Assembly (NCBI GenBank): GCA_964016885.1
Contig: OZ024745.1
Span: 86,924,001 to 86,988,000, forward strand
DNA length: 64,000 bases
Origin: Eledone cirrhosa
Lineage: Eukaryota
Direction of reading: 5' to 3'
The notes under the pieces were generated by a model. That model ran no database searches and was not told where the DNA came from. It worked only from the letters and a program-made list of their open reading frames with translations. Of this stretch, positions 7,681 to 41,190 are shown piece by piece. Position numbers and translations under genes: made by a program. Position 1 is the first letter of the stretch, and each line of letters begins with the position of its first letter.

Positions 7681-7684
7681 TGGA

Positions 7685-7716
<32 letters not shown>

Positions 7717-12888: not shown

Positions 12889-13765
12889 CAGTTCAAGAGT
12901 AACCAATCTTAAAGAGAGAGATGGAGATAGGAGAGGAAATATGAGAGGAGAGATTGGTGAATTAGGTAGAAGCCAGTTAGTAAATTCCAACTAAATCGGT
13001 GATTTGCGCGGAGTCACTTGAGCCCATCGTAATGTCAAAGTTATCTGTTCTATCTTTTCTAGTCCAGAGTGCTCCGTTGAATTCAATGCCATAAGTATGA
13101 TGTTAATCTCATTATTGGTTATGTCCGAGCTGGTGCTGGCTAGGGTTAATGCTTTGTTGAGCAGTTCCGGGGTTATTGACGCGTAATAGGTGTCGATGTC
13201 AAATTGGATGAACCTCATAGATTGCTTGGACCTTAGATCGGAGAACCATCTAATGACTTGGCCGGTGTTGGACCACAACTTGTAGGTGATATCATCCCGT
13301 AGCCCAGGGATTATCCTATCAAGGATGTTCTTACTGATGCGGCCCAGGTCAGATGTGGTTGGGCTTATAAGTCTAATAGATGGGTTCTGTATTACTTGGA
13401 AGTCGATTACTTATAAGTCTAATAGATGGGTTCTCTTTTACTTGTAGCTAATAAGTTAAATAGCTATGAACAACTTAGATAATTATAAGTTACCTCCCCT
13501 ACATTGTCTCTCAATTAAAAAATTTAAAAAATAGCACAACTATAAATACCCACAATTTCTAATCTCTCAAGGAGTTACTTCCACTGAAATCACCCTCTAA
13601 TTAGTAAGGTAAATATGTCCTTTGGCAGCCATTTTGTTACCCATACGCAGATCTCACCAAATGCAGCCTCGACAGATGAATACTGCTTGATTATGGCTGA
13701 CAACTGATGCAACCAAGACACCATAGTGAAAAACCAATATACGGAACATTATATTATGTAACAGA

Positions 13766-13950
13766 CGTGGATTGGCAGTATCGGTGGAGGGTCGGACGCA
13801 ATGCTTTCCAGCATAGTTACGTCCCTTTACGATCTGAGTTCAAATCCCGCCGAGGTTGACTTTGCCTTTCATCCTTACGGGGTCGATAAAATAAAGTACC
13901 AGTAATGCACTGGGTCATTGCTGGCCTTGTGTCTAAAGTAGAAACAATTA
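13766..13950 (+). mobile_element. tRNA-derived SINE (a partial copy also at 14130-14225)
   Basis: A/B boxes and the same core as the other copies; absent from the homologous 53.4-kb region. Confidence 0.9.
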
Positions 13951-13995
13951 TACTATGTAACATTATCTCATTATTTAAATTTATATTCCTTTGAA

Positions 13996-14115
13996 GTTCC
14001 GATGAGCAGCTCTGTCTTTTAAATATGTTAATTATTTTCAACTGAACCAGATCAATTATGATATATAGTCATCTGATCCAGAAATATTATATGGAGTAGC
14101 GAAACAATTGTAAAC
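13996..14115 (+). ncRNA. Hammerhead-like motif with CCGAUGA core and long loop II
   Basis: guu-CCGAUGA-gcagcu...aguagc-GAAA-caauug-UA-aac; homolog of 53434-53551. Confidence 0.6.
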
Positions 14116-14339
14116 GAACAGTATTATTATTTGCCTTTCATCCTTACGGGGTCGATAAAATAAAGTACCAGTAATGTACTGGGTTATTGCTGGCCTTGTG
14201 CCTAAAATAGAAACAATTATTATTAATATTATTATTATTATTATTATTCTCTACATTCCTTACATCAAACTAAAATATGTTGACAATCTTTTAATAATGT
14301 CTTCCTTGTGAAATGTTTGGTCTTGTTTTGCTTAACTAA

Positions 14340-14426
<87 letters not shown>

Positions 14427-17381: not shown

Positions 17382-17439
<58 letters not shown>
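17382..17439. repeat. (ATT)n; further tracts at 19047-19068, 19627-19660, 24526-24615, 26211-26281, 32197-32226, 38074-38081 and 38719-38779
   Basis: Direct reading; each tract sits at a LINE boundary. Confidence 0.97.
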
Positions 17440-18931
17440 GTTCTTTGAGTCTCAGTCATTGATGTTATTTAACTGGAAAGTTTGTTGAAATGAATATCAA
17501 GCTGCTACCTGCAGCCTCAGATATTCAGGATGTATCGGAGGGTTCTTGCTGTTCCCAGCAAGCATGCCTTTTGAAGTGTTCCAAGAAGCGGGGTTGGACT
17601 AATCTTCTTTAACCATCCCTGAAAACTCTTTGAGATAGTACCTAGTGCGCCTATGACAATCGGGACCACTTTGACTTTATGGCAGTTCCAAATCCTTTTT
17701 ACCTCCCACTTTAAGTCCTGGTATCGGTTAATTTTCACCCTCTCCTTCCCTTGCACTCTCGTGTCGAATGGGCAGGCCACATCCACAATCAGGCACGATC
17801 TTTTTTCCTTGTCCAAAACCACGAGGTCAGGTCTATTGTGTTCCAGTTTCTTATCTGTCTGTATCCTAAAATCCCACAGCACCTTCACCTGATCGTTTTC
17901 TATCACCGACTTTGGCTTATGCTCATACCACTTCTCAGAATGTTGTAAATTGTTTAGTTTGCATAGGTGCCAGTGGATCACCCTGCCCATCACATCATGT
18001 CTCCAGCCTTTATAGTGTGTCTGGGCTAGGTGTTTACACTCGGATACAATGTGAGCCACAGTCTCCCCCCTCTCTCCACAGATCATTCACATTGGGCTAG
18101 CCTCCTCCTTATAAATATGGTGTTTCAGCCACTTCGTTTTGAGAGCCTGCTCTTGCGCAGCCATTAGCATTCCTTCTGTAGCCTTTTTAAGGTCTCCTCT
18201 TTTCAACCAGTTCCATGTCTGTGGATCTCTGAATTCCGTTTTCTCAAAGTAGGTACTATGAAGGGATTTTTAATGAAGGCTGCTCTTTCTCCTTGTTGTT
18301 ATTTCCTCCTTGGAGATCCCCTGGTCTATTGTCCTCTCCTTCAGTACAATTCTGAGCATTGGCTCCTTACTATCAGTCCGGTATTTGTGTAGGTTGTTTT
18401 TCTCCATCTGAACACAGTCCTCTATGCTGATAAGAACTCTTCCACCTTCAGATCTCTTTAAGTAGAGTCTATCGACATCAATCCTCTTGTGGAACATGTT
18501 GTAGATAGTCAATAGCTTCCTAGTCTTCCTATCCATTTCTTTTTGTTCAGCAACATTCCATCTCAGAATTCCCGCACTGTACCTATTAATAGACACAGCT
18601 CGGGAATTTACTGCACTTATGGCATTTCTACTGTTCAGATGTGACTTTAATACTCTCCTTACTCTCCGAATGTATTCAGATCTTATCAATTCCTTCATTT
18701 TTTTGTTCTTGTTGTCATCTGCCTCCAGAACACCCAAATACTTGTATCCTTCTTCAGTGTCAATTTCCTTTATCATCTCACCTGTTGGTACCTGGATTCC
18801 GTTGCTTCTGCTCAATTTACCGTTCTTCATCACAAGGACTCCACACTTACTAATACCAAATTGCATACATATATCATTGCTGAAAATACGGACAGTGTCA
18901 ACAAGCACATCCAACTCCTTCTGACTCTTCC
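17440..18931 (-). mobile_element. R4/Dong-type RLE LINE, family B, 5'-truncated
   Basis: YKYLGV, RLYLKRSEGGR, zinc finger C..CGERGETVAHIVSEC, RLE motif NRPDLVVLD...IVDVACP...KINRYQDL; 3' end abuts (TAA)n. Confidence 0.88.
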
Positions 18932-19072
18932 CGAGAGAGAGATAGAGATTGCTCATACACATACGCATATTCACACACACATACACACACACACCTATAT
19001 ATGGAGAGAGGAGAAGAAAGTGATAGCGAAGGAAATAATCTTTATCTTATTATTATTATTATTATTATAATC

Positions 19073-19625
19073 CGTGTAGGACGGATCCAGCTATCAGCTC
19101 AGTCCATCGTGAGGATTGCCCGCCCTCCTCCTTTAGCCGGGAAGGGCAGGCAGTTTTTATCTGTCTGGTGGCCATGGCGAAAGAGATAGTTTGGTGGACA
19201 CGTTTGAAAGGGCTGAAGACGAGCACTTACCTCTTCGGTGATGCCCTGATTAACTTTTTCAAATTTCATTTGAAAAGGAATATCAGAGTAGAGAGGTAAG
19301 TGCTCTCTTCCCAGCATTTTGTTGAAAGATGGGTGAGAGAAGCAAGAATGGCCCGTACTCTGAGTACGTATATGTAAATTAAAGGTGGAAAACTGGGAGA
19401 GGGCACTTGCCCTGGTGGTCAGGGTCACTGTGGCCTTTTAATGGGCTTTCTCCACAAATGTCCCTCCGAAGTCTCCCCCCTATTGGGGAATTTTTCATTG
19501 TTATTTTTTTTATTACATCCTCTGTTTTTTTTTACACGCAGAAATGCCCATTAGTACCGTCCTGTATTGTCCTGTACTGTCCTTAATGTCAACTTTATGT
19601 AAACCCTTGTGGTTAATAAAGAAAG

Positions 19626-19626
<1 letters not shown>
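19073..19626 (+). mobile_element. Tx1 3' fragment (same subfamily as 32227-38073)
   Basis: Near-identical to 37508-38073; (ATT)n on both sides. Confidence 0.92.
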
Positions 19627-19661
<35 letters not shown>

Positions 19662-19662
<1 letters not shown>

Positions 19663-22600
19663 TGCATTTATCTTGCTTTATGTTCATACGAGTTATCACC
19701 AAGTCAGAACCAGTGACCTCAAGAGACAACAAGGTCCGCCATGTTCAAGAAAGAACATACATACACACACATGCATCCTTAGTGTTTAGACTTGTGATGT
19801 ACTTATATTGACAGGATCTTCCTTAGTATATGGGCAGTTCCCATTAGTACTATCTTTTGTATTTCTCCTATACGCGGGTTTCCTGGGATTTGCGATAAGT
19901 AGTCGTTAGACCCCTTAGGTATCATTCCCAGAGCGCCTACAACCACTGGTATTGTTTTAGTTCTCAATTTCCATATTTTTCCAATTTCTATCTCCAGGTC
20001 CTTATACTTGCTCAATTTTTCAAATGTTTTTATAGATACATTCTTGTCTATTGGAACAGACATATCAATTAGCAGGCATACCCTCCTTTGAAAGTCCTTC
20101 AATATTATATCAGGTCTATTTGCATCTATTTTTCGGTCTGTTTGAGATGTGATCTTTTTCAAGTATGGGAGGTGGTTGATGCTCCCACCAATTCTTTTGA
20201 TGGGGCAGGTCAAAATGCTTACACATTATCCAATGTATGTATTGTGCAGCTGTGTCATGCCTGTTTAGGTATTCGGTTGGAGCTATAGGACTGCACATTG
20301 AAATTATATGGTCAATGGTCTCTGGTTGTTTTTTGCATACACGGCATAATGGGCTGCACCCATTTTTTATTATGTTGGCTTGGTAATTTTTTGTTGGCAG
20401 ACACTGATCTTGTGCCGATATAATCAGTCCTCCAGTCTCCGATTTCAGTCCAGAGGATGCCAACCACTGATGGGTTAAAGTTTTGTCAACATCAGGATTG
20501 TTAGCTCGCTCTGGGTATTTTCCATACAGAGGCTTTTCTTGCCATTTCTTAGCCAGTTTCTGTAGCAGTTCTTTCTTTGCAGTTACTTTTACCTGCTTTG
20601 CTTTTTCTGTGTTTTCCATTTCAGCAGTAAATGGGACTTCTGAAATTTGTATTCCATTACTGTATCTTTGTGCATCTTTTGTAATGGAATATGATATTTT
20701 GGTGCTTTCGTGTTTCAAAACGAGTTTGATCATCCAATCATGTGATTCCCTTAGATATGTGGATAGTCCAATTGTTGCAGTTTTCAACGCAATGTCTAAC
20801 TGGATTAACCCACGTCCTCCTTCTTTCCTAGGGAGATATATTCTATCTATGTCTGCCTTAGGGTGATGCATTCTGTGCATGGTTAATAATTTTCGGATTT
20901 TTGTATCGAGCCTACGGATCTCTGTGCTTGACCAGTTGATGACATTGTAACTGTAGGTTACTACTGGTATGGCAAGCGTGTTTATGCCATCGATCCTATT
21001 CCTTGCATTCAATTCCGTTCTTAAGATTGCTCTGACTCTGCGGTAACATTCCTTCCTTATCCTTTCCCTCATTGTCGAGTGCTTGATTCCGTCTCCTTCA
21101 CAAACACCTAGATATTTGTAAGTTTTTTTTTGATCAAGCTCTCTTTCCCCCGATCAAGATTAATGTCTGAACTCTTCAGCAGCTTTCCTCTGGTGAACGT
21201 TGCTTTGGTGCATTTATCCAGTCCAAACTCCATTTTAATGTCATCACTGAACTGCTTCACAGTGGATAATAGCCCTTGCAATTGTTCATCATTTTTTGCA
21301 AATAGTTTCAGGTCATCCATGTAGAACAGGTGATTAATGGTTTTGTCATAGACTCTATATCCATGTTTTGTTTCTTTGAGCATTTTACTTAATGGTATAA
21401 GTGCGATGCAGAATAAAAGCGGTGATAAAGAGTCACCCTGAAAAATTCCACAATTAATATTAACTTCTCCAGCTTCCAGTGAATTTGTTTCACTATTCAA
21501 AAGGAGTGTCGTTTTCCATGTCTTCATACTGAATGACAAAAACCTCCTGACAACGGGGGATATTTTGAAAATCTCTAAACATTTTCCAATCCAACTGTGT
21601 GGCAAACTATCGAATGCTTTTTTATAATCTATCCAAGCAATCGATAGATTTTTGTGTCTATTATGACAATCTTCCAGTATCATTTTGTTAACCAGAAGCT
21701 GATCCTTACAGCCATATGAGCCTCGTTTACACTCTTTCTGCTCAATGGGAAATAGGTCATTTGTTATCAGGTGGTCATATGTGTATTCAGTTAGGACTGA
21801 TGTTAAAATTTTATACATTGTGGTCAAGCAGGTTATCGGTCTGTAATTTTTGGGATTGTTTGTCTCATCATTCTTCGGTAGCAGGAATGTAATGCCGTTA
21901 ACTAGCCATGATGGTATCTTTTCTGGCTCCTTAACTATTTCATTGTAAAGTTGGGCTAACAGCTCATGAGACTCTGTGAAGGCATTTATCCAAAAGTTTT
22001 GTATTTTGTCTTTTCCTGGGGATTTCCATTTGCTGGTTTTTCTTAGAGCCAAGCGCAACTGTTCAACTGTTATATTTTCCCATGTTTGTTCTTCAAGGTG
22101 AGCTGTTTCTTTCATTTGTCTGTCTATCCATAGGGCATGTATGTTATGAACTTTTTCTTCGGCCCAGATCTTTTCCCAGAATTCTTGCACTTCCTCCTTG
22201 GGTGGTATTGATTTAGCAGTTATTGTTGACTTACCAATTTTTCTGTAGAAGTTTCTTTGGTTGTTTTTGAACATATTATTTTCCTTATAGAATCTAGATC
22301 GTTTTTCAAAGCGCCTTATACGAGCAGCTTTGGCCGACTCTTTTTGCTTGATTGTTTCTATCAGCATGTCTATGTCACATGTTGATCTTATACTGTACTT
22401 TTTTTTCAATTTTCTAAGTTTAGTTTGTTTAACATGTTCACCTACTTTATAGTTTGTTAAAATTTCTATGTCAGATCGGAGAAGGTTTATTTGGCGATTG
22501 ATGTTATCTTGCCAAGTAGATTTCTTGTGGGAATTCCTTTGTTTTTTCATCTTCACTCCACATAAGTGAGTGGTGACTTTAGCCGATGCATAATAGAGAT

Positions 22601-24525
22601 GATTTAAGTCAGTAATGTTTAGTTTGTTTGTGATGATAATGTTTTTGAGAATTATGTTAGTCTTGTGTATTATCTTTTGGTTCTGTTTGGAGTTCTGGAT
22701 CTTAGGGAGGGTGTCTCGTTGCCCCATGTCAGATTCTTTCATTTTCATCCATTCGATCATAATTTCATCCTTCAAGTTGGCAAGTTCATTCTCATTCATT
22801 TCTTTATCCTTTACGATCTCATTATTTTCATTTGGAGTTTCATCCTGAGCATGCACTCCCTCCACTTTTTCGCTCCTTTCTTTAATTTGTTCTGTTGCCA
22901 GTGATTCCGCCCCAACCCTGGGATTCGAAGTGTTACAGTTTACTTCGTTTTCACTGACACATGTTTCATTTTCCCTTCGCTGACTTTGTGCTACTAGCTT
23001 GATCTGATCAATTTCTATATCAGTTAGTAACTTTTTTCTTACAATATTTCTTCGTATATTGGCTAGTTTGTTACTGTCAATATAGACTCTGTTTTCGGGA
23101 TGTTTCTTTTTCCAGTTGATATATGTCTGTTCTGTATTCGATGTATTTGATGGGTAGTACATGGCAGTGTAGAAAGCCTCAAGGACTTCTTTATTATCTT
23201 CCCTTGACCATTTTTCTCTCTTTTTCTTTGGATTTCTTGGTGGTGAGCATGGAGGGCCAACAGTAGGAGTATTCCGGTTATGGGAGGTCTCCAGCTCCGA
23301 AGTGATGGGAAGGTTTGAACCATTAGCTGATTTTTCGACCCCAGTCTGGTTCCTCTCTGAGGGACGCGGCCCTTTTTTACCCGGGTGACGGCCGATCCGG
23401 TATGAGATTTTATCATTAGACATTTACTTTATTTTGTCGCGTTTTATCCTTATCCGCCAAGGGGTATCATTTCGTGTTACCACTTCTAGAACGAGTGTCA
23501 ACCAAGACTAGAGGGGTCGTTCTCCCCTAGAGACATGGCTATTCCCCGCCGGCCGCCATCCCGGTATTTCTTGGTCACGGGGTTTTCTTTTTGTTGTTTT
23601 TTTTAAAATTGTTATTATCATGAGTGGTTCCTTAATGTGAGCATTGCGTGGCTTAAGAATGAAATTATTAATAATTGTCTCCACTCCAGGCACAAGGCCA
23701 GCAATCACATAGTGCATTACAATAATATAATATACTTTTTGTTGTAGTTGGCTGTTATTGTTGTTGGCTATGTCGGTGGTGGTGCCGGGGCTTTTTATAT
23801 TGTTGGTGAGGAAGGGGTGAGCCAGCAGTCCCATAATTGTTGATGTAGACGTTTGGCCGGTGGCAAGGTCACCAAGTCAATCTATTTATATCTTTTGCTA
23901 GCCTCTCTCTTGTCTAGTGATACCGCCACCTTCCCTTTTCTCTCTCAAGTTAACAGGGGAATAGTGTCAGTAGCATTGAATGAGTAGTGGCGGCGATGAT
24001 GGATGCGGTGGGGTGGTGGCAGCGGTGGTGTTGTGGTTACTGATATAGTATCTATGAGTTTGTGTTCGTATGTTTAATATATATTTTTATTATATTTTGT
24101 GTTGACATATTCCCGTAAAATTTGAATTAAACATTTTTTAAAATTTGAGACAATAATAATAGTAATTATTATTATGATGCTGGTGAAATTGCCGTTATCT
24201 GGCTGTTATATTTAGTGTGATGGGATAGGTAGTGTATCAAGTTTCTGGTGTTGGTGAAATTGAAATTGCTGCTATTTGGCTGTTCTATATAGTGTAGACA
24301 GAGGGTGTTTTGTTCCATTTATAACCATTTTCTTTTTTTGAATACAAAATATATAATACAAAATTGAATATTTGAGCGATACAACAATATAATATGGATC
24401 CGAAACTTTATGGGACCTCATTCGGTGCATTTATGCAACATTTGTGCTAAGAATTGTTCTTTCACAATTGATATAAATATGTTAAAAATCAAAAACTTAC
24501 GGGAGCAATTTCGTGACGTTCTACC
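19662..24525 (-). mobile_element. R4/Dong-type RLE LINE, family A, probably full length
   Basis: One long frameshifted ORF with RT, CCHC and RLE; ~1.1-kb putative 5' UTR; (TAA)n at both ends. The 5' boundary is inferred from the repeat. Confidence 0.85.
19803..23423 (-). pseudogene. Dong ORF (RT + CCHC + restriction-like endonuclease), two frameshifts
   Basis: NYRPITCL, WIDYKKAFDS, GIFQGDSLSPLLF, HLFYMDDLK, CRVCKKQPETIDHIISMC, NRPDII...IDMSVP...KLSKYKDL. Confidence 0.92.
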
Positions 24526-24616
<91 letters not shown>

Positions 24617-26210
24617 GCTGCATTTATCTTGCTTTATGTTCATACGAGTTATCACCAAGTCACACCCAGTGACCTCAAGAGACAACAAGGTCCGCCATGT
24701 TCAAGAAAGAACATACATATTCACACATGCATCTTTAGGTGTTTAGACTTGTGATTTACTTATATTGACAGAATCTTCCTTAGTATATGGGCAGTTCCCA
24801 TTAGTACTATCTTTTGTATTTTTCCTATACGCGGGTTTCCTGGGATTTGCGATAAGTAATCATTAGACCCCTTAGGTATCATTCCTAGAGCGCCTACAAC
24901 CACTGGTATTGTTTTAGTTCTCAATTTCCACATTTTTCCAATTTCTATCTCCAGGTCCTTATACTTGCTCAATTTTTCAAATGTTTTTATAGATACCTTC
25001 TTGTCTATTGGAACGGACATATCAATTAGCAGGCATACCCTCTTTTTAAAGTCCTTCAATATTATATCAGGTCTATTTGCATCTATTTTTCGGTCTGTTT
25101 GGATGCTAAAGTTCCACAAGATTGCGATGTGATCTTTTTCTAGTATGGGAGGTGGTTGATGCTCCCACCAATTCTTTTGATGGGGCAGGTCGAAATGCTT
25201 ACACATTATCCAATGTATGTATTGTGCAGCTGTGTCATGCCTGTTTAGGTATTCGGTTGGAGCTATAGGACTGCACATTGAAATTATATGGTCAATGGTC
25301 TCTGGTTGTTTTTTACATACACGGCATAATGGGCTGCATCCATTTTTCATTATGTTGGGTTGGTAATTTTTTGTTGGCAGACACTGATCTTGTGCTGATA
25401 TAATCAGTCCTTCAGTCTCCGATTTCAGTCCAGAGGATGCCAACCACTGATGGGTTAAAGTTTTGTCAACATCAGGATTGTTAGCTCGTTCTGGGTATTT
25501 TCCATACAGAGGCTTTTCTTGCCATTTCTTAGCCAGTTTCTGTAGCAGTTCTTTCTTTGCAGTTACTTTTACCTGCTTTGCTTTTTCTGTGTTTTCCATT
25601 TCAGCAGTAAATGGGACTTCTGAAATGTGTCGTCCATTACTGTATCTTTGTGCATCTTTTGTAATGGAGTATGATCTTTTGATGCTTTCGTGTTTCAAAA
25701 CGAGTTTGATCATCCAATCATGTGATTCCCTTAGATATGTAGATAATCCAATTGTTGCAGTTTTCAACGCAATGTCTAACTGGATTAACCCACGTCCTCC
25801 TTCTTTCCTAGGGAGATATATTCTATCTATATCTGCCTTAGGGTGATGCATTCTGTGCATGGTTAAGAATTTTCGAATTTTTGTATCGAGCCTACGGATC
25901 TCTGTGCTTGACCAGTTGATGACATTGTAACTGTAGGTTACTACTGGTATGGCAAGCGTGTTTATGGCATCGATCCTATTCCTTGCATTCAATTCCGTTC
26001 TTAAGATTGCTCTTACTCTGCGGTAACATTCCTTCCTTATCCTTTCCCTCATTGTCGAGTGCTTGATTCCGTCTCCTTCACAAAGACCTAGATATTTGTA
26101 AGTTTCCTCTTGATCAAGTTCTCTCATCACGTTCCCCCGATCAAGATTAATGTCTGAACTTTTCAGCAGCTTTCCTCTGGTGAACGTTGCTTTGGCGCAT
26201 TTATCTAGTC
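24617..26210 (-). mobile_element. Dong family A, 5'-truncated tandem copy
   Basis: ORF 24760-26130 is near-identical to the 19.8-21.1 kb protein and lacks its RLE-region frameshift; (TAA)n on both sides. Confidence 0.92.
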
Positions 26211-26216
26211 TTATTA

Positions 26217-26281
<65 letters not shown>

Positions 26282-26496
26282 GGTTGGTGAAACCACGCTT
26301 CTTATCGCCTCCAGTCTTTTTCAACGTTTTACCTCTTTTTCAACCGTTCTAAACCTTTTATTCAAGTTTTAAATTTGATAAAAGTTTAGAAGAAGTGACC
26401 CACCTAATACAGGGTTTCACTAGTAAATAATACGGCACCCCTTTACGGGGTGTCGTATTCGTATTTGTGTAAAAATACTTTTTGAAAAATTCCAAC

Positions 26497-28496
26497 ATGG
26501 ATAACACAAAAGAGAGAGAGAGCGCTGTCAGACAACACAGAGAGACGGAGACTTTATCAGCATGTCAACAAGACAGCGTTCCAGCGGAGGTAAATATAAA
26601 CGAAAATATTACAAAGGAAAAAAAGATTGTTACAGATTTAAAATTAACAAATATTTCTAACACAAACAACACCAACAATAACACCAACAACATCACCAAC
26701 AACAACACCAAAAATAACAGCGGTAAAGTCGAGAACGCCAATAACAAAAATAACAGCGGTAAGGTCGAGAACGTCAATAACAATGACAATAACAACAGCC
26801 ACAACAACAATAATAGTAGGAACAGTATCAACAAAAACAACAATAATAACAACAGCCACAATAACAGTAACAGCAGCAGCAGTATCAACAAAAACAACAC
26901 CAACAACTGTTCCAGCGAAAAGAACAACAATGACACCGATACCTGTAATAGCGACCTCAGCACCACCAGTAAGACCAATAGCGGCAGCAATAGTGGTGCT
27001 GCTGAAAAAGGGACCACTTCCTTTGCAGGTGTCGCCCGAAATATCGAGACTGTGTTAGTCACAGAGGAGGAGATGGCAGTCGCAAGGGCCATGGTTACAA
27101 GAAGCGCAAATAGAGTTTCCCTGAAACCTCCACCCGATTTTTTCAAGGATCAGCAGCTACGAACGGTGACTTAAGCAAAATCTCACATCGAGTGGAGAGA
27201 GCCACGGAGGCTCAAATCCAAAGGCCTTGGGGTGCGTCTGGGCACGCAAAACCCACATCACCCGAGGCAGAAAGTACGCCACAGTAGACGTACTTTTCGC
27301 CACCCCCCTGGAAGCAAAGTCTCACTCTTTGGAAACCCTAAAGAGTGAGGAGTTAGTCTTGGTGCCCTCCTACTGCGGGCAGAAAATTGTGAGGGTCAAA
27401 GTGACACAGGTCCCACCCGACATGCCCATACCTTGGCTGGCCGCGTCTGTCCTTGTTGGAATTGAGAACAGGGCGACCATGCTGCAAGTAGAAAAAATAG
27501 GGAGAGAGAATTGGTCAGGTATAGGCATGCAAATGCTTATACAAACTGACCAGGAATGTATCGAGGCTATCCCCGATATCATAGACTTTGAGGAAGGACT
27601 CCAACTCCCTATAAGTGTAGAAGGAAGACGGCCAAAATGTTATCTCTGTGGGTCGAAAGGTCACCTCAGGGCCTTTTGCCCGCAGAAGACACCGAAGAGG
27701 GCCCCTCTCCTTCCAATAACTGGTCCGCTGCTACCAAGAGCAGGACAGGCAACAAACGAAGAAGCCCCTTCTACGGTGAGTAGGAGGGCAACGTCCGTAG
27801 CACCCGTACTAAGACCACGGATAACTAAAGCAGCATCATCAGTAGCGGCAACACCAATAGCTACATTGGAAATAGCTACACCAGCAACAGCATTGCCGAA
27901 GAGGGCTCCACTACCACCACCAACAGCCGTGGAGCACATACCCCTCCCAGACGCCACAGAATCCGACATGGAGTTTGAGGCGGGAGTGACGTGGCAAACA
28001 GTCTGCCACAAAAAAACAAAAAACAATAAAACCCTTAGATTCACCCTCCAAAAGCGAAGGCATACAAAGAGGGGTAAAGGCAGCAAGGAAACTTGCAGCA
28101 ACACCACCACAAACACCAACAACGCAAACACGACAAGACACGCACACCAAACAGCAACAAGAAGAAAACGGCAACAAAATCACCCCTCCCCCCAAAAAGT
28201 ACACAGCCATAAAGATAGCAAAAAAAGAACTCATAAAATATATAAAGCAGCATACAGACATCACGGAAAAAAATTACTACACCCCACCAGCACCAAGAAT
28301 TCTCCCGACAAACATAAGCATCATCGAAATCTCATTAGAACAATACAAACCTTTAAAACAAAAACTCCCAAACGCAGTTGGAGACTTCAGAGGGACGGTT
28401 ACCAAGAGGATATACACTGACATCCTCTTGGAAACACCCATGACCAGCGAAAGGGACGATTCTACTGTCCCTTCACCACACGTACAAGGTAAGTGA
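26497..28496 (+). pseudogene. Tx1 ORF1, frameshifted
   Basis: Asn-rich N-terminus, LVPSYCGQ, VEGRRPKCYLCGSKGHLRAFCP; my translation of the last frame ends ...HVQGK*. Confidence 0.85.
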
Positions 28497-28528
28497 CCCT
28501 TTCTCATTTGCCCCATTTCTCATCCAAC

Positions 28529-31500
28529 ATGGCTGTACTCAGAATAGGCAGTATAAATGCACGTGGCCTGGGGTCATCTTGGAAGCAGGGTCACCTGCTC
28601 AATGACCTCAGGTCACTAAACATAGATGTGGTGGCTATCAGTGAAACCAGAATCTCCGAGGCACGGGCCTTCGCACCGATATTCGGCGGCTACGATGTAT
28701 ACGCATCTCCCAGCCGTCCAGGACCGGGGGGAGGGGTTGCCGTCCTTTTTCGGAGAGGCTTGGATCTCGCGATACGGGCTATCTTCCTGGACCCAGAAGG
28801 TAAGTCGGTGGTCCTGGACTTGACCGGCAGCGAAGGCAATGCTTTCAGGCTAGTAGCCGTCTACGCCCCAACAGGGGCAGGACGGTCAGATTTCTTAAGA
28901 CGTCCAGAGACCTTTCTTGGAACGTTCCGCTCTTTAGTCTTAGTGGGCAACTGGAACGGTATCTTGGATGCACGCTGAGATTGTGTGGGGCTAGTGGATA
29001 GGGGAGGAGGGTGCAAGAGCCTCACCAACCTGCTCAGACGTTTTGAACTGTCTGACAGGTATCGACTGGATCACCCGAATATGCCAATATGGACATGGAC
29101 AAACCGCATCGGGTCATCCAGATCGTATCTAGTTAGGGTATTCTGCAGGGAACTAGATAAGGCTAGTATAAGTTGTCCACAATTTAAAATAGTCGACTAC
29201 ACAGACCACAAATTTGTGATCTGTGAGATCGACATAGACAGACTTCATAGACAAAGTCCTGGTTACTGGAAGCTGAACGCGTCTTTCCCGGCGCGCAAGG
29301 CCTACAGAGACCGGATTAGCGTATTAGTTAAGCGGGTGTTGACGGGAGCGGTCGTCAACAACAGGTGGTGGTTCGCCCTGAAAAGCGCAATTAAAGTAGA
29401 GTCGATTAGGTTTAGCAAAGGAGTAGTGATAGAGGAAAATAGAGTAGAGGGAGAGCTAGTCAGAAAGCTAGAAGAGGCGTTTAGAACAGGCATCGCGACC
29501 GACGTGCTTGCGGCGAGATTGGCACACGACCAATTCTTCAACGCAAAACACGAAGGCTGCGTTGTCAGAGCTAGATCGCGTGCTCTGAAACACGAGGGGA
29601 CAAAAGCCGTCCAATGGGCTCGGGTGGCAGAGGCGCGACGTGGCATTAAAGCCACAATTCGGTCTTTGTCTGACCAAAACGGGTGCGTGATGCTCGAACC
29701 CGAGCGGATATGTGAAGCTTTTCAGCAGCACTTTGCTGAACTGTTCGGGAGCGGCGGCGGCCCGGATCGGGACATGGACTTCTGTGCATACCTCGACGGA
29801 CTGCCTCGGCTCTCGACGACCGCAGCACAGTGTTGCGAAAAGCCAATAACAGCCGGTGAAATACGGGAAGCGATGGCTAACTGCACAAGAGGTAAATCAC
29901 CAGGTTTAGATGGTCTGCCCTACGAGCTTTATGCATTTATGCCAGACTTGTTCGGTGACCTCTTGGCAGACGTCTACTGCAACTGGCAGCAGAACGGGAG
30001 CATTTCCAGTTTTGTGAGCAGTGGCGCATCTGAGAAAGACCCGAACAAGGGGGATGTTATTGATAATTTCAGGCCCATAACTCTGCTAAACGCAGAGTTC
30101 AAGATTTTGGCCAAGGTGTTAGCAACGAAGTTGGCACTTGTCGTCAAGGGTCTAGTGGGAGAGGCGCAGATATGCGCAATCCCGGACAGATCCATACACG
30201 ACAACCTCCACTTCATGCGATACATCATAGAGAGGGTGGTTAAGGAACTTGGCAAGGGTGGGGCCCTGATCAACTTGGATCAATCCAAAGCATTCGATAG
30301 GGTCGACCATCGGTACCTGGCGGCGGTCCTCGAGGCAGCCGGTTTCGGGCCCGTTTTCAGGCGTTGGATCGCAGCAATGTACAGCGACACCTGCTCAGTT
30401 GTGAGGGTGAACGGTCACCTGTCGCAGCCGTTCAGCATCATGCGCTCAGTCCGCCAGGGTTGTCCCCTCTCGTCCCTCTTGTACGTATTGGCTCTCGAGC
30501 CGTTACTGCACAAACTGGGGCGATGAGGGGCGTCCCACGTGAACTAGGATGCGGGAAATCCGAGTCGGCTTACGCTGACGACGTCACCGTAGTGGTGTCG
30601 AGAACCAGACACGTCCAGATGCTCGGCACCGCTCTCAAGGAATACGAAACGGTGACAGGAGCAAAGATAAACCAGGAAAAGTCGGTGGGCTTGCAGCTAG
30701 GCACCTGGAGAGGCAAGTCCATGCCGTCCGACAGCGTCGTGGGGCGTTGGACGGACGGACCGGTTAAATTGCTCGGGGTCTGGTTCGGACCGGACCTCCA
30801 GATGGAGAAAAACTGGAACGAGGTGACGAGGAGGGTGGCCTCCCTCACCCAGAAATGGGCTGAGAGGAAGCTGTCCCTGAAAGGCCGGGCGGAAGGGGCG
30901 AATGCGTACATCCCATCCGTCATCTGCTACCACCTCACCGTCGTCCCTTGCTCCAGCCCAACTCACACCAAAATGGAGCGCCTCCTCTTCCGCTTTTTGT
31001 GGAAGGGACGCGCTCCCATGGTCAGACGATCCATCTGCTGTCAACACCCGTTGCGTGGAGGACTGGGCGTGCCATGGCTGATGATGCGCAAACATGCGCT
31101 GAGGCTGCGACATCTCTGGTGCTTCCTTGATGGTGAACGGGTGTGGTCGCCGTTCGCCAGGCACATTTTCCCCCAGCTCGTCTCCTTGACGGAGCTGCAG
31201 TCCTGGGTCAGAAAAAGACCGAGGGATAGCGCTTGGAAACTGGAATGTCTCCAGGCGCTCACTGCCCTCTCCCAGTTGGGCACCAGTATCGGTGGAACAT
31301 CTACCTCGGCGTTCTATAGAGGACTAGTGGAGGGGAAGAGCGACGACGTTCTCGGAGAGATCCTGGGCGTCGAAGAAGATCAGCTGCTTGCTCTCTTCCG
31401 GAGAACTTTCAGCCCGGGGCCTATGGATAACTTCCAAAAATCCCTGGCCTGGCAGTGCTACCGGGGAGCGTTGCCGGTTCGAGATAAGCTCTACAGGCAC

Positions 31501-31923
31501 GGAAGTGCCGTCAGCCGAGCCTGTCCGAGTTGCGCGCATAGCAACGAAACCGTTGTGCACGCACTCGTTCAGTGCCCAAGCATTGCTGACATGTGGAGCT
31601 ATGTCGAACAGTTGCTGTCACGTGTGTGACTGATCCGGTTGTCGACTGAGTCCATTGTGCAGATGGTCTCGCCGTCTTCCTTTGAGGAGGAACGGCAGGC
31701 GGTTTTCATCTGCCTGGTGGCCATGGCGAAAGAGATTGTGTGGTGGACAAGTTTAAAAGGATTAAAGACAAATACTTTCCTCTTCGGCGAATCCCTGATT
31801 AACTTTTTCAAGTTTCACTTGAAGAGGAAAATCAGGGTGGAGAGGCAAGTGCTGCTTTCTAGCAAGTTTGTTGAAAGGTGGGTGAATGTAGCGAGAATGG
31901 TCCGAGTGAATATACGTCTGTAG
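28529..31923 (+). pseudogene. Tx1 ORF2 (APE + RT), disrupted
   Basis: NARGL, ISETR, YAP, KSPGLDGLPYE, NFRPITLLN, KAFDRVDH, YADD, CPSC...H..C. Confidence 0.92.
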
Positions 31924-32194
31924 TTTGAGGGATGGAAAAATTGAGTAGTCAGGGTGGCCATGGTCTTTTGTGTGGTTTTCGCCACGAGTAACCCTCGGAG
32001 GTTTCCCCCTTATTGGGGAATTTTTCATTGTTTCAATTTTCATTTTATTGTTTATATATATATATATGTTTTATGTCCTTTTTCTTTTCTTATATAAATA
32101 ATAAAAATATTTACACGCACAAAACCCACATCGTACCGTCCTGTTCCGTCTGTGATGTTTTTCTTGATGTCAGCCCTTGTGGCCAATAAAGAAA

Positions 32195-32226
<32 letters not shown>

Positions 32227-32436
32227 GGCGACCTACGTAGTAAATCGTATCATCGTGAGCTCCGCAAAGGTTTGTTATTTCCATTTGTTAAAAATTGCCA
32301 TTTATGAAAATTTTTTATTGTTAACTATATATAAGCGCACATACATTGTTTTCCGAAAAGGACATCCAAAAAGATTGGGGCCTTGAGCCCAAAATTTAAA
32401 CTTTTATGATTATCAAAAAATTTCTTTGAAAAAAAA

Positions 32437-34398
32437 ATGGCTAATTCACCTCTGCACCAAGCAGCTGAAAGCCTTCCTCACAAATTAACACCTCACACCG
32501 ACACCACCATTGTAAATGATACTACGTTTGCCAACACAAACAATTTAAGCACTAGCAATATTTTAAATTTGTCTCAGGCAGACATTCATTTCCCACCATT
32601 ACCAATGACTGCAGGTGTTAAAGCCGCCGCCACCACCACCACCGCAACAACCACCACCCCACCACCACCGCGACAACAGAAACAAAAGGAAAAAATAAAT
32701 CAACTCGCGATGTCGAAATATTTTCAAACAAAATGGACTCTTCCAAACCGAACTCCACTGACGTCACCACCACCACAACTGAAACTAAAATTAATAATAA
32801 CAAAAATAACGATAGCAACAACAACAACAATGACATTAAAAAACCACCCTGAGTTTTGCCAGAGTAGCAAAACAGTGCGAAGCATTTACGGTAACTCAAG
32901 AGGAATTGGAAAATGCCAAAAAAATGGTAAAGAAAGATGGGTACAGGGTCAGCCTCACCCCCCCACCTAATAAAATGGAGCATCGGCGCCTATGCACCGT
33001 GTCGTATCGAACAATAAATGTAAAATCGCGCCGAGTGGAACGGGCATCCGAGTCCCAAATCCAAAATGCTCTGGGACATGTGTGGGCAAGAAAAACCCAC
33101 ATCAGACCTGGGCAGAGTATGGAACCGTGGACGTGTTCTTTGAAAGATCAGAGGAGGCTAGAGAACACTCCATGGCCCCATTAAGAAGTGACGACTTCAC
33201 ACTCGTCCCAAGCTATTGTGGCCAGAGACTCGTAAAGATCAGGGTGACCCACGTTCCACCGGCCATCGAAATTCCCTGGCTAATAGCGGCCGTCCTCGCC
33301 GGAATCGAAGCCAACACAAAGATAATAGCAATAGCAAAAAGAAAAGCAGGAGAACTGGTCCGGATCTGGGATGGAGCTCCTGATCCAAGCGGACCAAAAA
33401 AGCATTGAGGAGATCCCAGAGGTAATAGACCTCACTGACGGCAGCCACCTCACCGTAATTGTCGAAGGCAGAAGGCCTAGATGTGTCGTTTGTGGTGAAG
33501 GAACCCACCTAAGGGCTTTCTGCCCTCAGGCTAAAAGGTTGAGGCCACCTCTCCTACCCACCCCAGTGACTCAACCATCAACACCACCAGTAGCAGAGAT
33601 GGCAACAACAACTGTAGCAGCAACAACAGAAGCAACTATAACAGCAACAACCCCAGCAACTAGCAAAACCAACACCACCACCACCCAACGCTTCAGAACT
33701 AGCACCAGCGCCTACACCATCCACCACGCCACAACCAAAACTAACGCCTGTGGAGGATTTTCCACTCCCCAGCCTATCACAACTGGAGACAGATTGTGAC
33801 GACGAGGAGTGGGAAACGGTAACAGGAAAAAAGAAAAAAAGAAACCAAAAAAGAAAAAAATTCTCTTCCTGCCCCCTCCAAAAACAAAATACAGAGGGAA
33901 ACAGATAAATTAACAAACAAAAAAGTTAGGACAGATATGCCACCATCCACACCAGCATCACCAACCCCATCACCCCAAACACCAACACCATCACCATCAT
34001 TAACCCCAACACCACCATCACCTACACCACAAAAGTCACCAAAATGCGAAACAGAAACAAGCCCACAACAAACGCAAACAAAACAAAACAACCAAAACTA
34101 TACACACTACACAGCATTAAATTTGAACAACAACCAATTATTACACTACATCCAACACAACACCAGCATCACAGAAAAAAACTACACAACAACCCAAAAA
34201 TTCACACCACCACCACACATACAAATCACTCGCATCACACAGAAAACGTACATGACACTAAAACAAAAATTTCCGAAAGACATCGGAGACTTCCGACAAG
34301 CACTCTCCAGGAGGATTTATAAGGACATCCTTCCTGAGGAGGCCACACGCAGTGAAAAGGATGGAAAAACCGTCCTTCCTCTACGAGAAGTAAGGTAA
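32437..34398 (+). pseudogene. Tx1 ORF1, multiple frameshifts
   Basis: LVPSYCGQ and VEGRRPRCVVCGEGTHLRAFCP in fragments. Confidence 0.83.
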
Positions 34399-34432
34399 GT
34401 GGTCTTTCCCATCTTTTCCACTCCATTTCAAC

Positions 34433-37400
34433 ATGACCTCACTCAGAATAGGTAGCATAAATGCGCGTGGCTTGGGGTCGTCATGGAAGCAGGGCCACCT
34501 GCTTAACGACCTCAGGTCACTAAACATAGATGTAGTGGGCATCAGCGAGACCAGAATCTCCGAAGCACGGGCCTTCGCACCGATCTTCGGCGGCTACGGG
34601 ATCGGGGGGAGGAGTTGCTGTGCTTTTTCGGAGAGGTTTGGATCTTGCCATACGGGCCATCTTCCTGGACCCAGAAGGTAAGTTGGTGGTGCTGGACGTG
34701 ACCAGCGGAGACGGGCAAGCTTTCAGGCTAGTGGCCGTCTATGCCCCGACAGGAGCAGGGCGGCCTGATTTCTTCCGGCGTCTGGAGACCTTTCTTGGAA
34801 CGTCCCGCTCTTTAGTGTTAGTGGGCGACTGGAACGGGATCTTAGATGCACGCTGGGACTGTGTGGGATTAGCGGATAGGGGTGGAGGGTGCAAGAGCCT
34901 CACCAACCTGCTCAGGCGTTTTGAACTGTCTGACAGGTACCGATTGGATTTCCCGAATGTGCCAATGTGGACTTGGACAAATCGCATAGGGTCATCCAGA
35001 TCATATCTAGATAGAGTATTTTGTAAAGAAATAGATAGGTCTAGCATAGGCTGTCCACAATTCAAGATAGTCAGCTACACGGACCTCAAATTCGTGATCT
35101 GTGTACTTGATTTAGATAGGCTTCATAGACGAGGACCCGGCTACTGGAAGCTAAACGCGTCCTTACCAGCGCGCAAGGCCTACAGAGACCGCATTAGCGA
35201 ACTAGTTAAGCGGGCGTTGACGGGGGCCATCGTCAACAACAAGTGGTGGTTTGCTCTGAAAAGAGCAATTAGAATAGAGTCCATTAGGTTTAGTAAGGCT
35301 TTAGCAATAGAGAAAAATAGAGCAGAGGGAGAATTAGTTAGAAAATTAGACAAGGCGCTTAGCAAAGGCATCGCGACCGACGTGCTTGCGGCGAAATTGG
35401 CCCTTGACAAATTCTTCAATGCAAAGCACAAAGGCTGCGTTGTCAGAGCTAGGGTGCGTGCTCTCAGACACGAGGGGACGAAAGCCGTTCAATCTGCCCG
35501 AGTTGCGGGGGCGCATCGTGGCAACAAAGCCAAGATCCGGTCTTTGGTGGACCACGACGGGCGCATGCTACTCGATCCCGGGAAAATGTGTGAAGCTTTT
35601 CAGCGACACTTCGCTCAGTTGTTCGGGGGCAGCAGCGGGCCGGATCGAGGGATGGACTTTAGTGTCTACCTCGACGGACTGCCGCGGCTCTCGGCCACTA
35701 AGGCGGAGTGTTACGAAAAGCTGATAACAGCCTCTGAAGTACGGGAGGCAATGACTAGCTGCACAAGGGGTAAATCGCTTGGTTTGGATGATCTGCCCTA
35801 TGAACTTTACGTACAGATGCCAGACTTGTTCGGAGGCCTCTTGGCGGACGTCTACTGCAACTGGCAACAGAACGGGAGAATTCCCAGCTCTGTGAGCCGA
35901 GGAGCGGTGGCGCTGCTGAGAAAGGATCCGAACAATGGGGATAACATAGATAATTTTAGGCCCATAACTATTCTAAACACAGAGTTCAAGATTTTGGCCA
36001 AGGTGCTAGCAAAGAGGTTGGCGCTTGTCGTTGGTGGTCTGGTGGGAGAGGCGCAGACATGCGCCATTCCCGACAGATCCATCCACGACAACCTCCACCA
36101 CATGCGATACATCGTAGAGAGGGTAGCTATGGAACCTGGCACGGGTGGGTCTTTGATCAATTTAGATCAGTCGAAAGCCTTCTATAGGGTCGACCATCGT
36201 TACCTAGCGGCAGTCCTGAGGGCGGCTGGCTTTGGTCCCGTCTTCAGAGGCTGGATCGCTGCCATGCACAGCGACATCTGCTCTGTAGTGAGAGTGAACG
36301 GTCACCTTTCGGAACCGTTCAACATCATGCACTCGGTCCGCCAAGGATGTCAGCTCTCGTCCCTATTGTACGTATTGACTCTCGAGCCATTACTGGAAAA
36401 ACTGGAGACGTTGAGGGGGTCCCGCGAGAACTAGGATGCGGAAGATCCGTGTCAGCATATGCGGACGATGTCACCGTAGTGGTGTCGAACGCCAAACACA
36501 TCGAGGCGATCGGCACTACACTAGGAGAATACGAAGCGGTGAAAGGAGCAATCATCAACCAGGAAAAGTCAGTGGGCCTGCAGCTCGGCACCTGGAGAGG
36601 CAGGTCCATGCCGTCCAACAGCGTCGTCGGGCGCTGGACGGACGGACCGGTTAAATTGCTAGGGGTCTGGTTCGGTCCAGACCTCCAGACGGACAAAAAC
36701 TGGGACGAGGTGACGAGCAGGGTGGCTTCTCTCACCCAGAAATGGGCCGAGAGGAAGCTATCCCTGAAAGGTTGAGCGGAGGTGGCTAACGCGCACATCG
36801 CGTCCGTCATCTACTAACGCCTGACCGTCTTACCTTGTCCTAAGCCCCGCCTGACTCCACTGGAGCGTTTGCTCTTTCGCTTTTTGTGGAAGGGACGCGC
36901 TCCGATGGTCAGGCGGTCCATCTGCTGTCAACACCCGCTACGTGGAGGGCTGGGAATGCCGTGGCTAATGATGCGCAGACACTCGCTCAGGCTACGACAT
37001 CTCCACCTCTTCCTCGACGGTGATCAGGTGTGGTCGCCGTTTGCTAGACACGTCTTTCCCCAGCTCGTCTCCTTGGCGGAGCTGCAGTCCTGGGTCAAGC
37101 GAAGGCCGAGAGGGAGCGCTTGGAGACTGGAATGTCTTCAGGCGCTCACAGCCCTCGACCAATCGGGCAATGTGATCGGTGGAAACTCCACCTTGGCGTT
37201 CTATAGAGGATTAGTGGAGGGGAAGAGCGACGACGTACTTGGAGAAACTCTAGGCGTCGACGAAAATCAACTAGCCAATCTCTTCGGAAGGACTTTCGGG
37301 CCGGGGCCTATGGACAACTTTCAGAAATCCCTGGCCTGGCAGTGCTACCGGGGAGCTTTGCCAGTTCGGGATAAACTCTACAGGCATGGAGGTGCCGTCA

Positions 37401-37825
37401 GCCGGGCATGTCCGAGATGCGCACAGGGCGACGAAACCGTCCTGCACGTACTCGTCCAGTGTCCGAGCATTGCTGACTTGTGGGTTTATGTCGAACACCT
37501 GCTGTCACGTGTAGGACGGATCCAGCTATCAGCTGAGTCCATCGTGAGGATTGCCCCGCCCTCTTCCTTTTGCCGGGAAGGGCAGGCACTTTTTATCTGT
37601 CTGGTGGCCATGGCGAAAGAGATAGTATGGTGGACACGTTTGAAAGGGCTGAAGACGAGCACTTACCTCTTCGGTGATGCCCTGATTAACTTTTTCAAAT
37701 TTCATTTGAAAAGGAAAATCAGGGTAGAGAGGGAAGTGCTCTCTTCCCAGCATTTTGTTGAAAGATGGGTGAAAGAAGCAAGTATGGCCCGAATGAATGG
37801 GCCTTCTCTGAGTATGTGTCTGTAA
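34433..37825 (+). pseudogene. Tx1 ORF2 (APE + RT), disrupted
   Basis: NARGL, GDWN, SYLDR, NFRPITILN, YADD, CPRC...H..C. Confidence 0.92.
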
Positions 37826-38081
37826 ATTAAAGGTGGAAAACTGGGAGAGGGCACTTGCCCTGGTGGTCAGGGTCACTGTGGTCTTTTAATGGGCTTTCTC
37901 CACAAATGTCCCTCCGAAGTCTCCCCCTATTGGGGAATTTTTCATTGTTATTTTTTGTTACATCCTCTGTTTTTGTTTTTACACGCAGAAATGCCCATTT
38001 GTACCGTCCTGTATTGTCCTGCACTGTCCTTAATGTCTACTTTATGTAAACCCTTGTGGTTAATAAAGAAATCATTATTAT

Positions 38082-38716
38082 GTGCATTACTGACTTGTGG
38101 AGTTATGTCGAACAGCTACTGTCGCGTGTGGAACGAATCCAGTTATCGGCCGAGTCCATAGTGAAGATCGAGCCGCCACCTTCCTTAGGTCAGGAAGAGC
38201 AGGACATTTTCCTCTGTCTGGTGGCAGTTGCGAAAGAGATTATATGGTGGACCAGGTTGAAAGGACTAAAGACAGACACTTTTCTCTTCGGCCAATCCCT
38301 CATCAACTTCTTCAAGTTTCACCTGGAAAGGAGGGTGAGGGTGGAGAGAGAAGTGCTGCCCCCCAGTACATTTGCTAAAAGGTGGGTGAATGTGGCAAGA
38401 ATGGCTCGTGTGAATGGGCCTACTCTGACCATGCGCCTATAGGCTGGCTAACTTGAGGAGAGGGGTGCTCTCCTGGGTGCCCTAGAAGCGCAGGCTGGTT
38501 CAGGATTGGTGGGGTACCCGAATCACCCCAGGGTCGTCCACCCCCTATCGGGGAATTTATTTTGTTATATTTTGCATAGTTTATTTTATATTTTATATTT
38601 TCATTGTTAAATTAGTCTTGCCATTGTGCACTTTTACTCGACCTTATTGTAAACCCCCACTGTCCCTGTCTTTGTATTGTCCCCTACATGTCGGCCCTTG
38701 TGGCTAATAAATGAAA

Positions 38717-38718
<2 letters not shown>
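38082..38718 (+). mobile_element. Tx1 3' fragment, another subfamily, in (ATT)n
   Basis: ITDLWSYVEQLLSRV...WWTRLKGL...RWVNVARM; distinct 3' UTR ending AATAAATGAAATC. Confidence 0.9.
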
Positions 38719-38783
<65 letters not shown>

Positions 38784-39015: not shown

Positions 39016-39081
<66 letters not shown>

Positions 39082-39778
39082 CATGCACATACACATATTC
39101 ACACATACACACACACACACCTATATATGGGGAGAGGGGAAGAAAGTGATATCGAAGGAAATAATCTTTATCTCTACATAAGTTACACGGACAGCCAATG
39201 GGAAACATATACGAATTATGTTGCCACACCTATACACATATATAGAAACATATTTGTGTAGGTGCGCATATGTGTGTGTATGAGTCTGAATTTATGTATA
39301 TGTGTGTAAACACACCGGTGTACCCACAACATATACCCTTACCGACACTAAGACAATACAAAATTACTCCCTCATTATCAAAATGTATCTATGTAACATC
39401 TTCCACTAAACATTCAATTTTGTGTTTCACTTAATTGATATGATTAGCACCTCCTTTTCATACTATATTCATGAACTGATAAAAAAATCCATATTTTTTA
39501 TAATTTTATTAGTTTTTCTTTTGTGAAGTCTAATTGCTGTTAAATATGTACTTGGAGCGAATTTTAACAAATATCAGGAAACAATAAAGTACAAGATTGA
39601 AGCTAACTACACAGCAGAAAATTATTTAGATTAGAACAAAACAACAGAAAATATTAAAATAAAAGCAACAAAAACTAGTTTGAAGTAGAATTCCAATATA
39701 TATTGGAAAAGAAAAGCGGCGAAAAAACATTCCATGGTCAATGACTCAACAAAGAGGAGATAAACCGTAACGAAATCT

Positions 39779-40790: not shown

Positions 40791-41190
40791 TGGATTGGCA
40801 GTATCGGTAGAGGGTCAGACACCATGCTTTCCAGCATAGTTACGTCCCTTTACGATCTGAGTTCAAATCCCGCCGAGGTTGACTTTGCCTTTCATCCTTA
40901 CGGGGTCGATAAAATAAAGTACCAGTAATGCACTGGGTAATTGCAGGCCTTGTGCCAATAGTAGAAACAATTATTATTCATGGATTGGCAATATTCGGTA
41001 GAGCGTCATACACCATGCTTTGCAGCATAGAGTTATGGCCTTTTACGTTCTGAGTTCAAATCCCACCGTGGTTGCCTTTGATCCTTGCGTGGTCGATAAA
41101 ATAAAGCACCAGTAACGTACTGGAGTCGATTTAATCGATTTTTCCCTCCCCTCAAATACTGGCCTTGTGCCTATACTAGAAATCATTATT
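40791..41190 (+). mobile_element. Two tandem tRNA-derived SINEs
   Basis: Heads GGATTGGCAGTATCGG at 40792 and GGATTGGCAATATTCGG at 40982. Confidence 0.88.

Follow-up and report, generated by a model that had tools for sequence, protein, structure and literature searches.

How do seven long interspersed nuclear elements (LINEs) from two unrelated clades come to lie side by side in what looks like a single (ATT)n microsatellite, with every member of one clade on one strand and every member of the other clade on the opposite strand? The question is raised by a nest at positions 17383-38778 of a 64,000-nucleotide stretch of the Eledone cirrhosa genome (GenBank assembly GCA_964016885.1, contig OZ024745.1, positions 86,924,001 to 86,988,000 of the forward strand); this whole stretch is referred to below as the window, and coordinates are given within it. 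The nest contains seven LINE copies of five families, with eight (ATT)n tracts between and around them. Three copies of the restriction-like endonuclease (RLE) type, which are Dong/R4-like, read on the minus strand, and four copies of the apurinic/apyrimidinic-like endonuclease (APE) type, which are Tx1-like, read on the plus strand. Judging from sequence comparisons, the nest very probably arose by seven separate target-primed insertions into one (ATT)n site, in which the strand of the tract sets orientation and the tract is regenerated each time, and which reflect a genome-wide habit of these families.

The nest begins on the left with (ATT)19 (17383-17439), which lies on the 3' side of DongB, a 5'-truncated RLE-type LINE (17440-18932, minus). 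A 115-bp filler at the DongB 5' junction (18933-19046, plus) is followed by (TTA)7 (19047-19067), a 5-nt filler and the 3' 554 bp of a 5'-truncated Tx1b-family LINE (19073-19626, plus). The 3' end of this copy faces, tail to tail across (ATT)12 (19627-19662), the 3' end of a near full-length RLE-type DongA with a frameshifted open reading frame (ORF) (19663-24526, minus); (ATT)29 (24527-24613) then separates it from a second, 5'-truncated DongA (24614-26210, minus). A 71-nt ATT tract (26211-26281) forms the head-to-head junction between Dong and Tx1a, a full-length APE-type LINE (26282-32196, plus) with one CCHC knuckle in ORF1 and an APE-RT-zinc finger ORF2 (RT, reverse transcriptase) that is interrupted by stops and frameshifts. 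The nest continues through (ATT)10 (32197-32226), a full-length APE-type Tx1b that is 81% identical to Tx1a across ORF2 and the 3' end and has broken ORFs (32227-38073, plus), an 8-nt ATT tract (38074-38081) and a 5'-truncated copy of a third Tx1-like family, Tx1c (38082-38718, plus), and ends with (ATT)20 (38719-38778). The ATT-phase tracts, from left to right, measure 57, 21, 36, 87, 71, 30, 8 and 60 nt, or 370 nt in sum. Each element aligns collinearly to copies of its family, so that no element is split by another. A preliminary description had proposed a seven-LINE nest of two unrelated clades with strict strand polarity, in which no LINE interrupts another, and the order, strands and coordinates agree with the sequence.

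The preliminary description also held that the two endonuclease types share one target repeat, each with a fixed polarity opposite to that of the other, and orientation at (ATT)n elsewhere in the genome was therefore scored as a check. The genome (3.0 Gb) was searched with the element ends, taking 30 loci per query (15 for DongA) ranked by identity; the DongA 3' search yielded 14 candidates, common words being skipped. The scored region was the 30 nt beside each junction, and the window's own loci were excluded. As background, an in-phase ATT run of at least 9 nt occurs in 6 of 1152 30-nt segments from the flanks of this window (0.5%). At 3' junctions elsewhere, the tract is on the ATT side in 92 of 99 Dong copies (one reversed, six without a tract) and in 78 of 83 Tx1 copies (none reversed, five without). 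At 5' junctions, the ATT side is found in all 64 full-length Tx1 copies, with neither a reversal nor a missing tract, and in 42 of 62 5'-truncated Dong copies (one reversed); for truncated Tx1 copies, pooled, the counts for ATT side, reversed and no tract are 10, 0 and 17, some of these being alignment ends rather than true junctions. By family, an ATT tract precedes the 5' end in 29/29 other copies of Tx1a, 29/29 of Tx1b and 17/17 of a third module, and the phase of the junction is constant for full-length Tx1. Orientation is thus not random, and opposite-polarity targeting of one repeat by the two types is supported across genome loci, as is the known targeting of (TAA)n by Dong, whose 3' ends have the expected polarity. 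At two loci (L065 and L067) Dong and Tx1 face the same way, both where the tract switches from AAT to ATT, which indicates that polarity belongs to each family relative to the local strand.

The flanks of the nest can be traced to one ancestral ATT site, as had been proposed, through the 115-bp filler. Only two full copies of this sequence exist in the genome, the filler itself and single-copy DNA in the right flank (39061-39173, plus), about 280 bp to the right of the nest and its likely source; an origin as a dispersed repeat was rejected on this count. The two copies differ by six substitutions and one 2-nt indel (6/113 sites, 95% interval 2-11%, or about 2.7% per copy). The filler joins DongB at a GA microhomology, and at the filler end the flank has TC where the nest has TT. 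Because the filler is a copy of right-flank DNA, the left and right flanks are tied to one site. The simplest reading is that it was locally templated during the 5' joining of DongB, when its source would have lain about 280 bp from the tract; the end of the cDNA would have been extended by 115 nt copied from nearby flank. Locally templated fillers are described for human L1 insertions in the portions consulted of PMC11702581; those were seen in cells, whereas here the filler would belong to an old germline RLE insertion and serves as a marker of order. DongB is the most diverged copy of the nest (2.5% from its family majority, against 0.95-1.74% for the other six), and the filler divergence matches that of DongB, so DongB is likely to have been the founder insertion.

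The remaining copies also appear to have arrived separately. The two DongA copies differ at 47/1592 positions, and lie 1.0-2.3% from copies elsewhere; counted as substitutions, the truncated copy is 3.0% from its neighbour and 1.8-2.3% from copies elsewhere. Between the Tx1b pair, 19/567 positions of the 3' end are different, and the full copy is 1.1% from a dispersed copy (L002). Since nest copies are nearer to dispersed copies than to each other, separate insertion and not duplication is indicated, and tandem duplication of either the DongA pair or the Tx1b pair was rejected. An origin of the 5' 1.1 kb of the near full-length DongA as host DNA was likewise rejected, because it is a 5' untranslated region (UTR) common to other copies (L062, L089, L094 and L122).

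The four Tx1-like copies of the nest represent three families (Tx1a, Tx1b twice and Tx1c), and the three Dong copies represent two lineages (DongA twice and DongB) whose RTs are 44% identical. All nest copies are truncated or frame-broken. The long plus-strand elements contain APE (PF03372), RT and zf-RVT domains, and an intact 1139-residue ORF2 of Tx1b type elsewhere in the genome contains PF03372, PF00078 and PF13966. The best solved relative of the Tx1b ORF2 is human L1 ORF2p (E 1e-27, versus 2e-14 for R2), and the endonuclease positions N, E, Y, GDWN, D and DH have aligned counterparts in the L1 enzyme. The Tx1-like elements have the organization of the L1 group, that is, an ORF1 followed by an ORF2 with an N-terminal APE, an RT and a C-terminal Cys domain. 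Members of the Tx1 clade are recognized by an ORF1 zinc knuckle together with target specificity, and both features are found here: a CCHC motif is visible in ORF1, although its match to PF00098 (E 0.007) is under that profile's cut-off, and the full-length 5' ends counted above lie at ATT without exception, far above the 20% rule given in the part consulted of PMC4494074.

The minus-strand elements contain an RT (PF00078) and a C-terminal CCHC and PD..D region, with CCHC-RHD and RPD..D motifs in the window copies. For a DongB copy elsewhere, the best solved relatives are R2 proteins (E 2e-31), ahead of L1 (3e-14), and its PD..D..K/KY stretch aligns weakly to the C-terminus of the R2 endonuclease (domain independent E-value 0.036); the C-terminal piece of DongA, searched alone, found no solved relative. 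This arrangement is the RLE-type architecture of the R2 group, a single ORF in which the RT is followed by a CCHC motif and a PD-(D/E)xK endonuclease. The Dong/R4 clade is characterized by an N-terminal Myb-like domain without zinc fingers. DongA and 25 relatives share a conserved Trp-spaced N-terminal domain with no zinc finger, which a single-sequence model renders as three helices with a low pLDDT (predicted local distance difference test score) of 60.6. Dong/R4 elements are also marked by insertion into (TAA)n such that the sense strand carries TAA, and this is what the Dong 3' ends and truncated 5' junctions display. No named Dong or R4 protein occurs among the 120 homologue matches listed or in 10 clusters, nor a named Tx1 protein among the homologue matches listed, where the best named protein is from Argonauta (71% identity); atlas searches gave none of the three names either.

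In the proposed mechanism, which follows the logic of target-primed reverse transcription, the two enzymes would nick opposite strands: (AAT)n in the case of the Tx1-like APE endonuclease, (ATT)n in that of the Dong RLE. Base-pairing of the freed 3' end with a matching repeat that terminates the element RNA would then prime cDNA synthesis, and orientation would be set because each element type reads one strand of the tract. Each event would leave tract on both sides through target duplication and a presumed repeat tail; each insertion would thereby turn one tract into two, so that targets multiply and nests grow between elements and not into them. AATAAA is located just before the tract at each Tx1-like 3' end, which would put RNA cleavage inside the tract and so supply the RNA with a matching repeat at its 3' end. 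The regeneration of the target, another element of the preliminary description, is borne out by the presence of tract on both sides of most copies. In addition, two of the 27 full-length Tx1-like copies (L225 and L227) are flanked on either side by a duplicate of an interrupted tract, with extra repeats 3' in L225; most of the other full-length copies have pure tracts and are hence uninformative for duplication.

A 184-bp SINE-like repeat (short interspersed nuclear element) is represented in the window at 40791-40974 and present in many copies. Of 30 copies, 20 have target duplications of 10-21 bp, and 16 of these begin with ATTAT; its 3' end resembles that of Tx1a (0/500 shuffles score as high; the resemblance is weaker for other families). 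The SINE may be mobilized by a Tx1-like enzyme and may seed many of the nests. The ATT run in SINE tails adjoining a LINE has a median length of 18 nt (n=19), versus 6 nt in free copies (n=96; p 4e-9), which fits lengthening of the tract. A piece of the SINE 3' end is also contained in the DongA 5' UTR (23654-23720).

Several points weigh against the reading of the nest as targeted insertions that regenerate their site. The samples consist of the top 30-40 matches per search, which favours young copies, and adjacent copies in a nest do not count as independent. No tract is found at 19/62 truncated Dong 5' junctions or at 3/35 Dong/Tx1 head-to-head joints. When 39 copies are sampled more cleanly, by anchoring on the 3' end of Tx1b, a 5' tract of at least 9 nt is much rarer in apparently truncated than in full-length copies (5/17 versus 22/22; Fisher p 1.6e-6); two more truncated copies have 6-8 nt, and two of the 17 ends are alignment ends in divergent ORF1 and no true junctions. 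The shortage of 5' tracts in truncated Tx1 copies implies that part of the 5' tract may be RNA-borne. The longer SINE tails could also result from a choice of long tracts. The age intervals of the nest copies overlap for the short copies, and subfamilies of DongB may inflate its divergence. Finally, the names Dong-like and Tx1-like are based on architecture and behaviour rather than on a tree that includes named references.

The tractless head-to-head joints (L195, L215 and L118) each bring together a truncated Dong and a truncated Tx1; either a deletion at the 5' end, or fusion between two cDNAs that had been primed on opposite strands, would account for them. Runs of (CTT)n often separate a Dong 5' end from the ATT tract (L062, L089, L096, L115 and L117), in L115 where a pure ATT tail is expected, and one full-length DongA 5' end has a CTT run in place of ATT. 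These runs possibly represent slippage during 5' joining, which would make a new microsatellite.

A comparison within the window bears on how the target is chosen. Outside the nest, window positions 1-7713 contain two tandem Tx1-like LINEs bounded by (ATCT)n, and a sister family flanked by this repeat (2057-7566, plus) provides an internal control. For this family, the second of the two, 29 other 5' ends follow strict ATCT in 27 cases and a shorter ATCT in two, and ATT in none. About 15 of these 5' ends follow the 3' end of another Tx1-like element, so this family forms nests of its own. Within a single genome, then, sister Tx1-like families occupy separate microsatellite niches, (ATT)n and (ATCT)n. 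Between the ATCT and ATT families the endonucleases share 61% identity, with a nearly unchanged hairpin loop ahead of the SYLD motif. In APE endonucleases, this loop shapes target specificity.

The similarity of the two endonucleases raises the possibility that targeting is mainly by the RNA ends: transcripts that begin and end in tract repeats would pair with any nicked tract, and a loose nuclease would suffice. This explanation, which concerns the specificity step alone and is compatible with the insertion history proposed above, we regard as possible but unlikely. The contrast between full-length and truncated Tx1 copies and the almost unchanged loop speak for it, as does the 3' tail, which matches the target in each family. 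The truncated copies are, however, still strongly enriched for a 5' tract over background (binomial p 2e-8). Moreover, the SINE with its similar 3' end makes its ATTAT-biased duplications without a long tail, which hints at an enzyme preference if Tx1 is indeed its partner, and endonuclease swaps change the target in SART and TRAS, according to the portions consulted of PMC7265360.

The idea that the locus is special did not hold. A survey covered 20 kb around the 10 best other Tx1b 5' matches and the 10 best other DongB 3' matches, with six loci extended; nest sizes were read by hand, since automated chaining merged or dropped some elements and broke where tracts flip. At least six LINEs across at least 18 kb were found at 4 of these 20 loci: seven LINEs in 18 kb (C3), six in 18 kb and six in 22 kb (both C4), and at least nine in about 36 kb (C28, which includes one unannotated 2-kb stretch). 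Several other surveyed loci contain solitary copies or two to five copies, and a sample anchored on element ends picks up large nests more readily. Within the automated chains, the tract strand is the same for each of the 36 adjacent pairs, 12 of them Dong-Tx1 pairs, with the qualification that the script broke at flips. The nest is in the upper tail of size and not unique; it is an ordinary large example of a genome-wide habit.

It is improbable that the nest was selected as a trap similar to a PIWI-interacting RNA cluster, through convergent read-through. The tail-to-tail pair at 19627-19662 and the mixed orientations would yield antisense RNA if transcribed through. However, all copies within each clade face the same direction, so that one read-through transcript would be antisense to one clade only, and nests of this kind are frequent and need nothing beyond targeting to explain them; the AATAAA before each Tx1-like tract would also tend to limit read-through. 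It is very improbable that the tracts are mere 3' tails and the nest a passive pile-up in a gene-poor region: all families do end in a repeat, and the repeat-rich window has no host gene domain among the 28 ORFs scanned, but tracts are also found at 5' junctions, including those of truncated and solitary copies, insertions landing at random in 21 kb of LINE would mostly have split elements, which is seen for none, and the ATCT family only 10 kb away makes no use of ATT at its 5' ends. A misassembly or tandem duplication across the repeats is just as improbable. The short-read contigs do break at the tracts, which no read spans, but each of the seven copies is distinct and has its closer matches among dispersed copies rather than within the nest, the left end is tied through the filler to single-copy DNA of the right flank, similar nests recur on several contigs, and contigs from a public short-read run, which stop at the tracts, match both flanks without differences (one sample, perhaps that of the assembly and hence not independent).

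Convergence of APE and RLE elements on one target and opposite polarity on one repeat both have precedents. In the portions consulted of PMC4640811, Keno (Tx1, APE) and Utopia (RLE) exemplify parallel evolution toward a U2 snRNA gene target; that target is a low-copy gene with identical 3' flanks, and those portions describe neither mixed nests nor opposite polarity. SART and TRAS insert into one telomeric repeat, (TTAGG)n, in opposite orientations and form arrays (PMC7265360 and PMC10088271, in part); both are R1-clade APE elements confined to telomeres, whereas here one partner is of the RLE type and the target is a dispersed microsatellite. Microsatellite-specific Tx1 elements comprise Kibi on (TC)n, Koshi on (TTC)n and crocodilian elements on (TTCC)n/(TTTC)n, as given in the consulted portion of PMC4494074; these are likewise APE-type and of the L1 group, and the targets here are (ATT)n and (ATCT)n instead. 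Dong is known as a single-ORF, RLE-type LINE of (TAA)n microsatellites, including Bombyx Dong, DongAg and the snail DongBg, and its class is given differently, one review listing it as APE-type and another paper placing it in the R2 group (PMC3812793 and PMC3636483, each in part). The (TAA)n target is alike in Eledone, where the sequence is of the RLE type, two lineages share the tract with APE elements, and nests reach tens of kb.

Dong-R4 elements are abundant and recently active in octopus, and L1-Tx1 elements are also recently active (PMC13282606, in part). Cephalopod and mollusc repeat papers list both groups as abundant or recently active, with no target analysis in the portions covered (PMC13282606, PMC8967140 and PMC10294476), and the words 'target' and 'nested' do not occur in the main text searched of the first of these. 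The literature searched, which did not extend to Repbase Reports, subscription-only journals or supplementary files (further Tx1 targets may be listed in those of PMC4494074), showed no Tx1 family on (ATT)n or (ATCT)n and no mixed Dong/Tx1 nests. The genome-wide behaviour seen at this locus combines known principles in a form not found described in that literature.

Other features of these elements and of the window may be mentioned here. The Tx1b ORF2 is associated with two different 5' UTR and ORF1 modules, which switch at a fixed point, Tx1b position 2125, near the end of ORF1 (L193, L206, L223, L224 and others); this amounts to an exchange of modules inside the family. Among the 39 best-matching Tx1b-type copies, 22 reach the family 5' end, a high proportion for a 6-kb LINE in a sample biased to young copies. 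Elsewhere in the window, a Penelope-like RT and GIY-YIG fragment (56051-57354, minus) adjoins 207-bp tandem units. A 1.37-kb inverted repeat, 94% identical, occupies 50266-51634 and 52506-53858 around an 870-bp spacer, and pieces of it recur at 13436-14346. An open frame of 514 codons without a Pfam match (59030-60574, minus) is accompanied by a flanking 340-bp direct repeat (57461-57800 and 60357-60695). No Rfam match at gathering level was found within 14-44 kb of the window.

As a tentative and rather doubtful extension of these results, a radiation of Tx1-like elements in octopods may have divided microsatellites into (ATT)n and (ATCT)n niches with closely related endonucleases, sharing ATT with two Dong lineages by use of the opposite strand. 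The sister Tx1-like families, with similar endonucleases and different microsatellites, together with an unrelated RLE element on the opposite strand, provide a natural pair that bears on how specificity switches and on the respective parts of nuclease and RNA ends. If pairing of the RNA ends, and not the nuclease, sets the target, these LINEs would in effect be integrators addressed by RNA, continually making new landing pads through their tails, their target duplications and their partner SINE; this positive feedback may explain in part the LINE hotspots and the growth of octopus genomes. The pattern also offers a concrete mechanism for the LINE hotspots of octopus.

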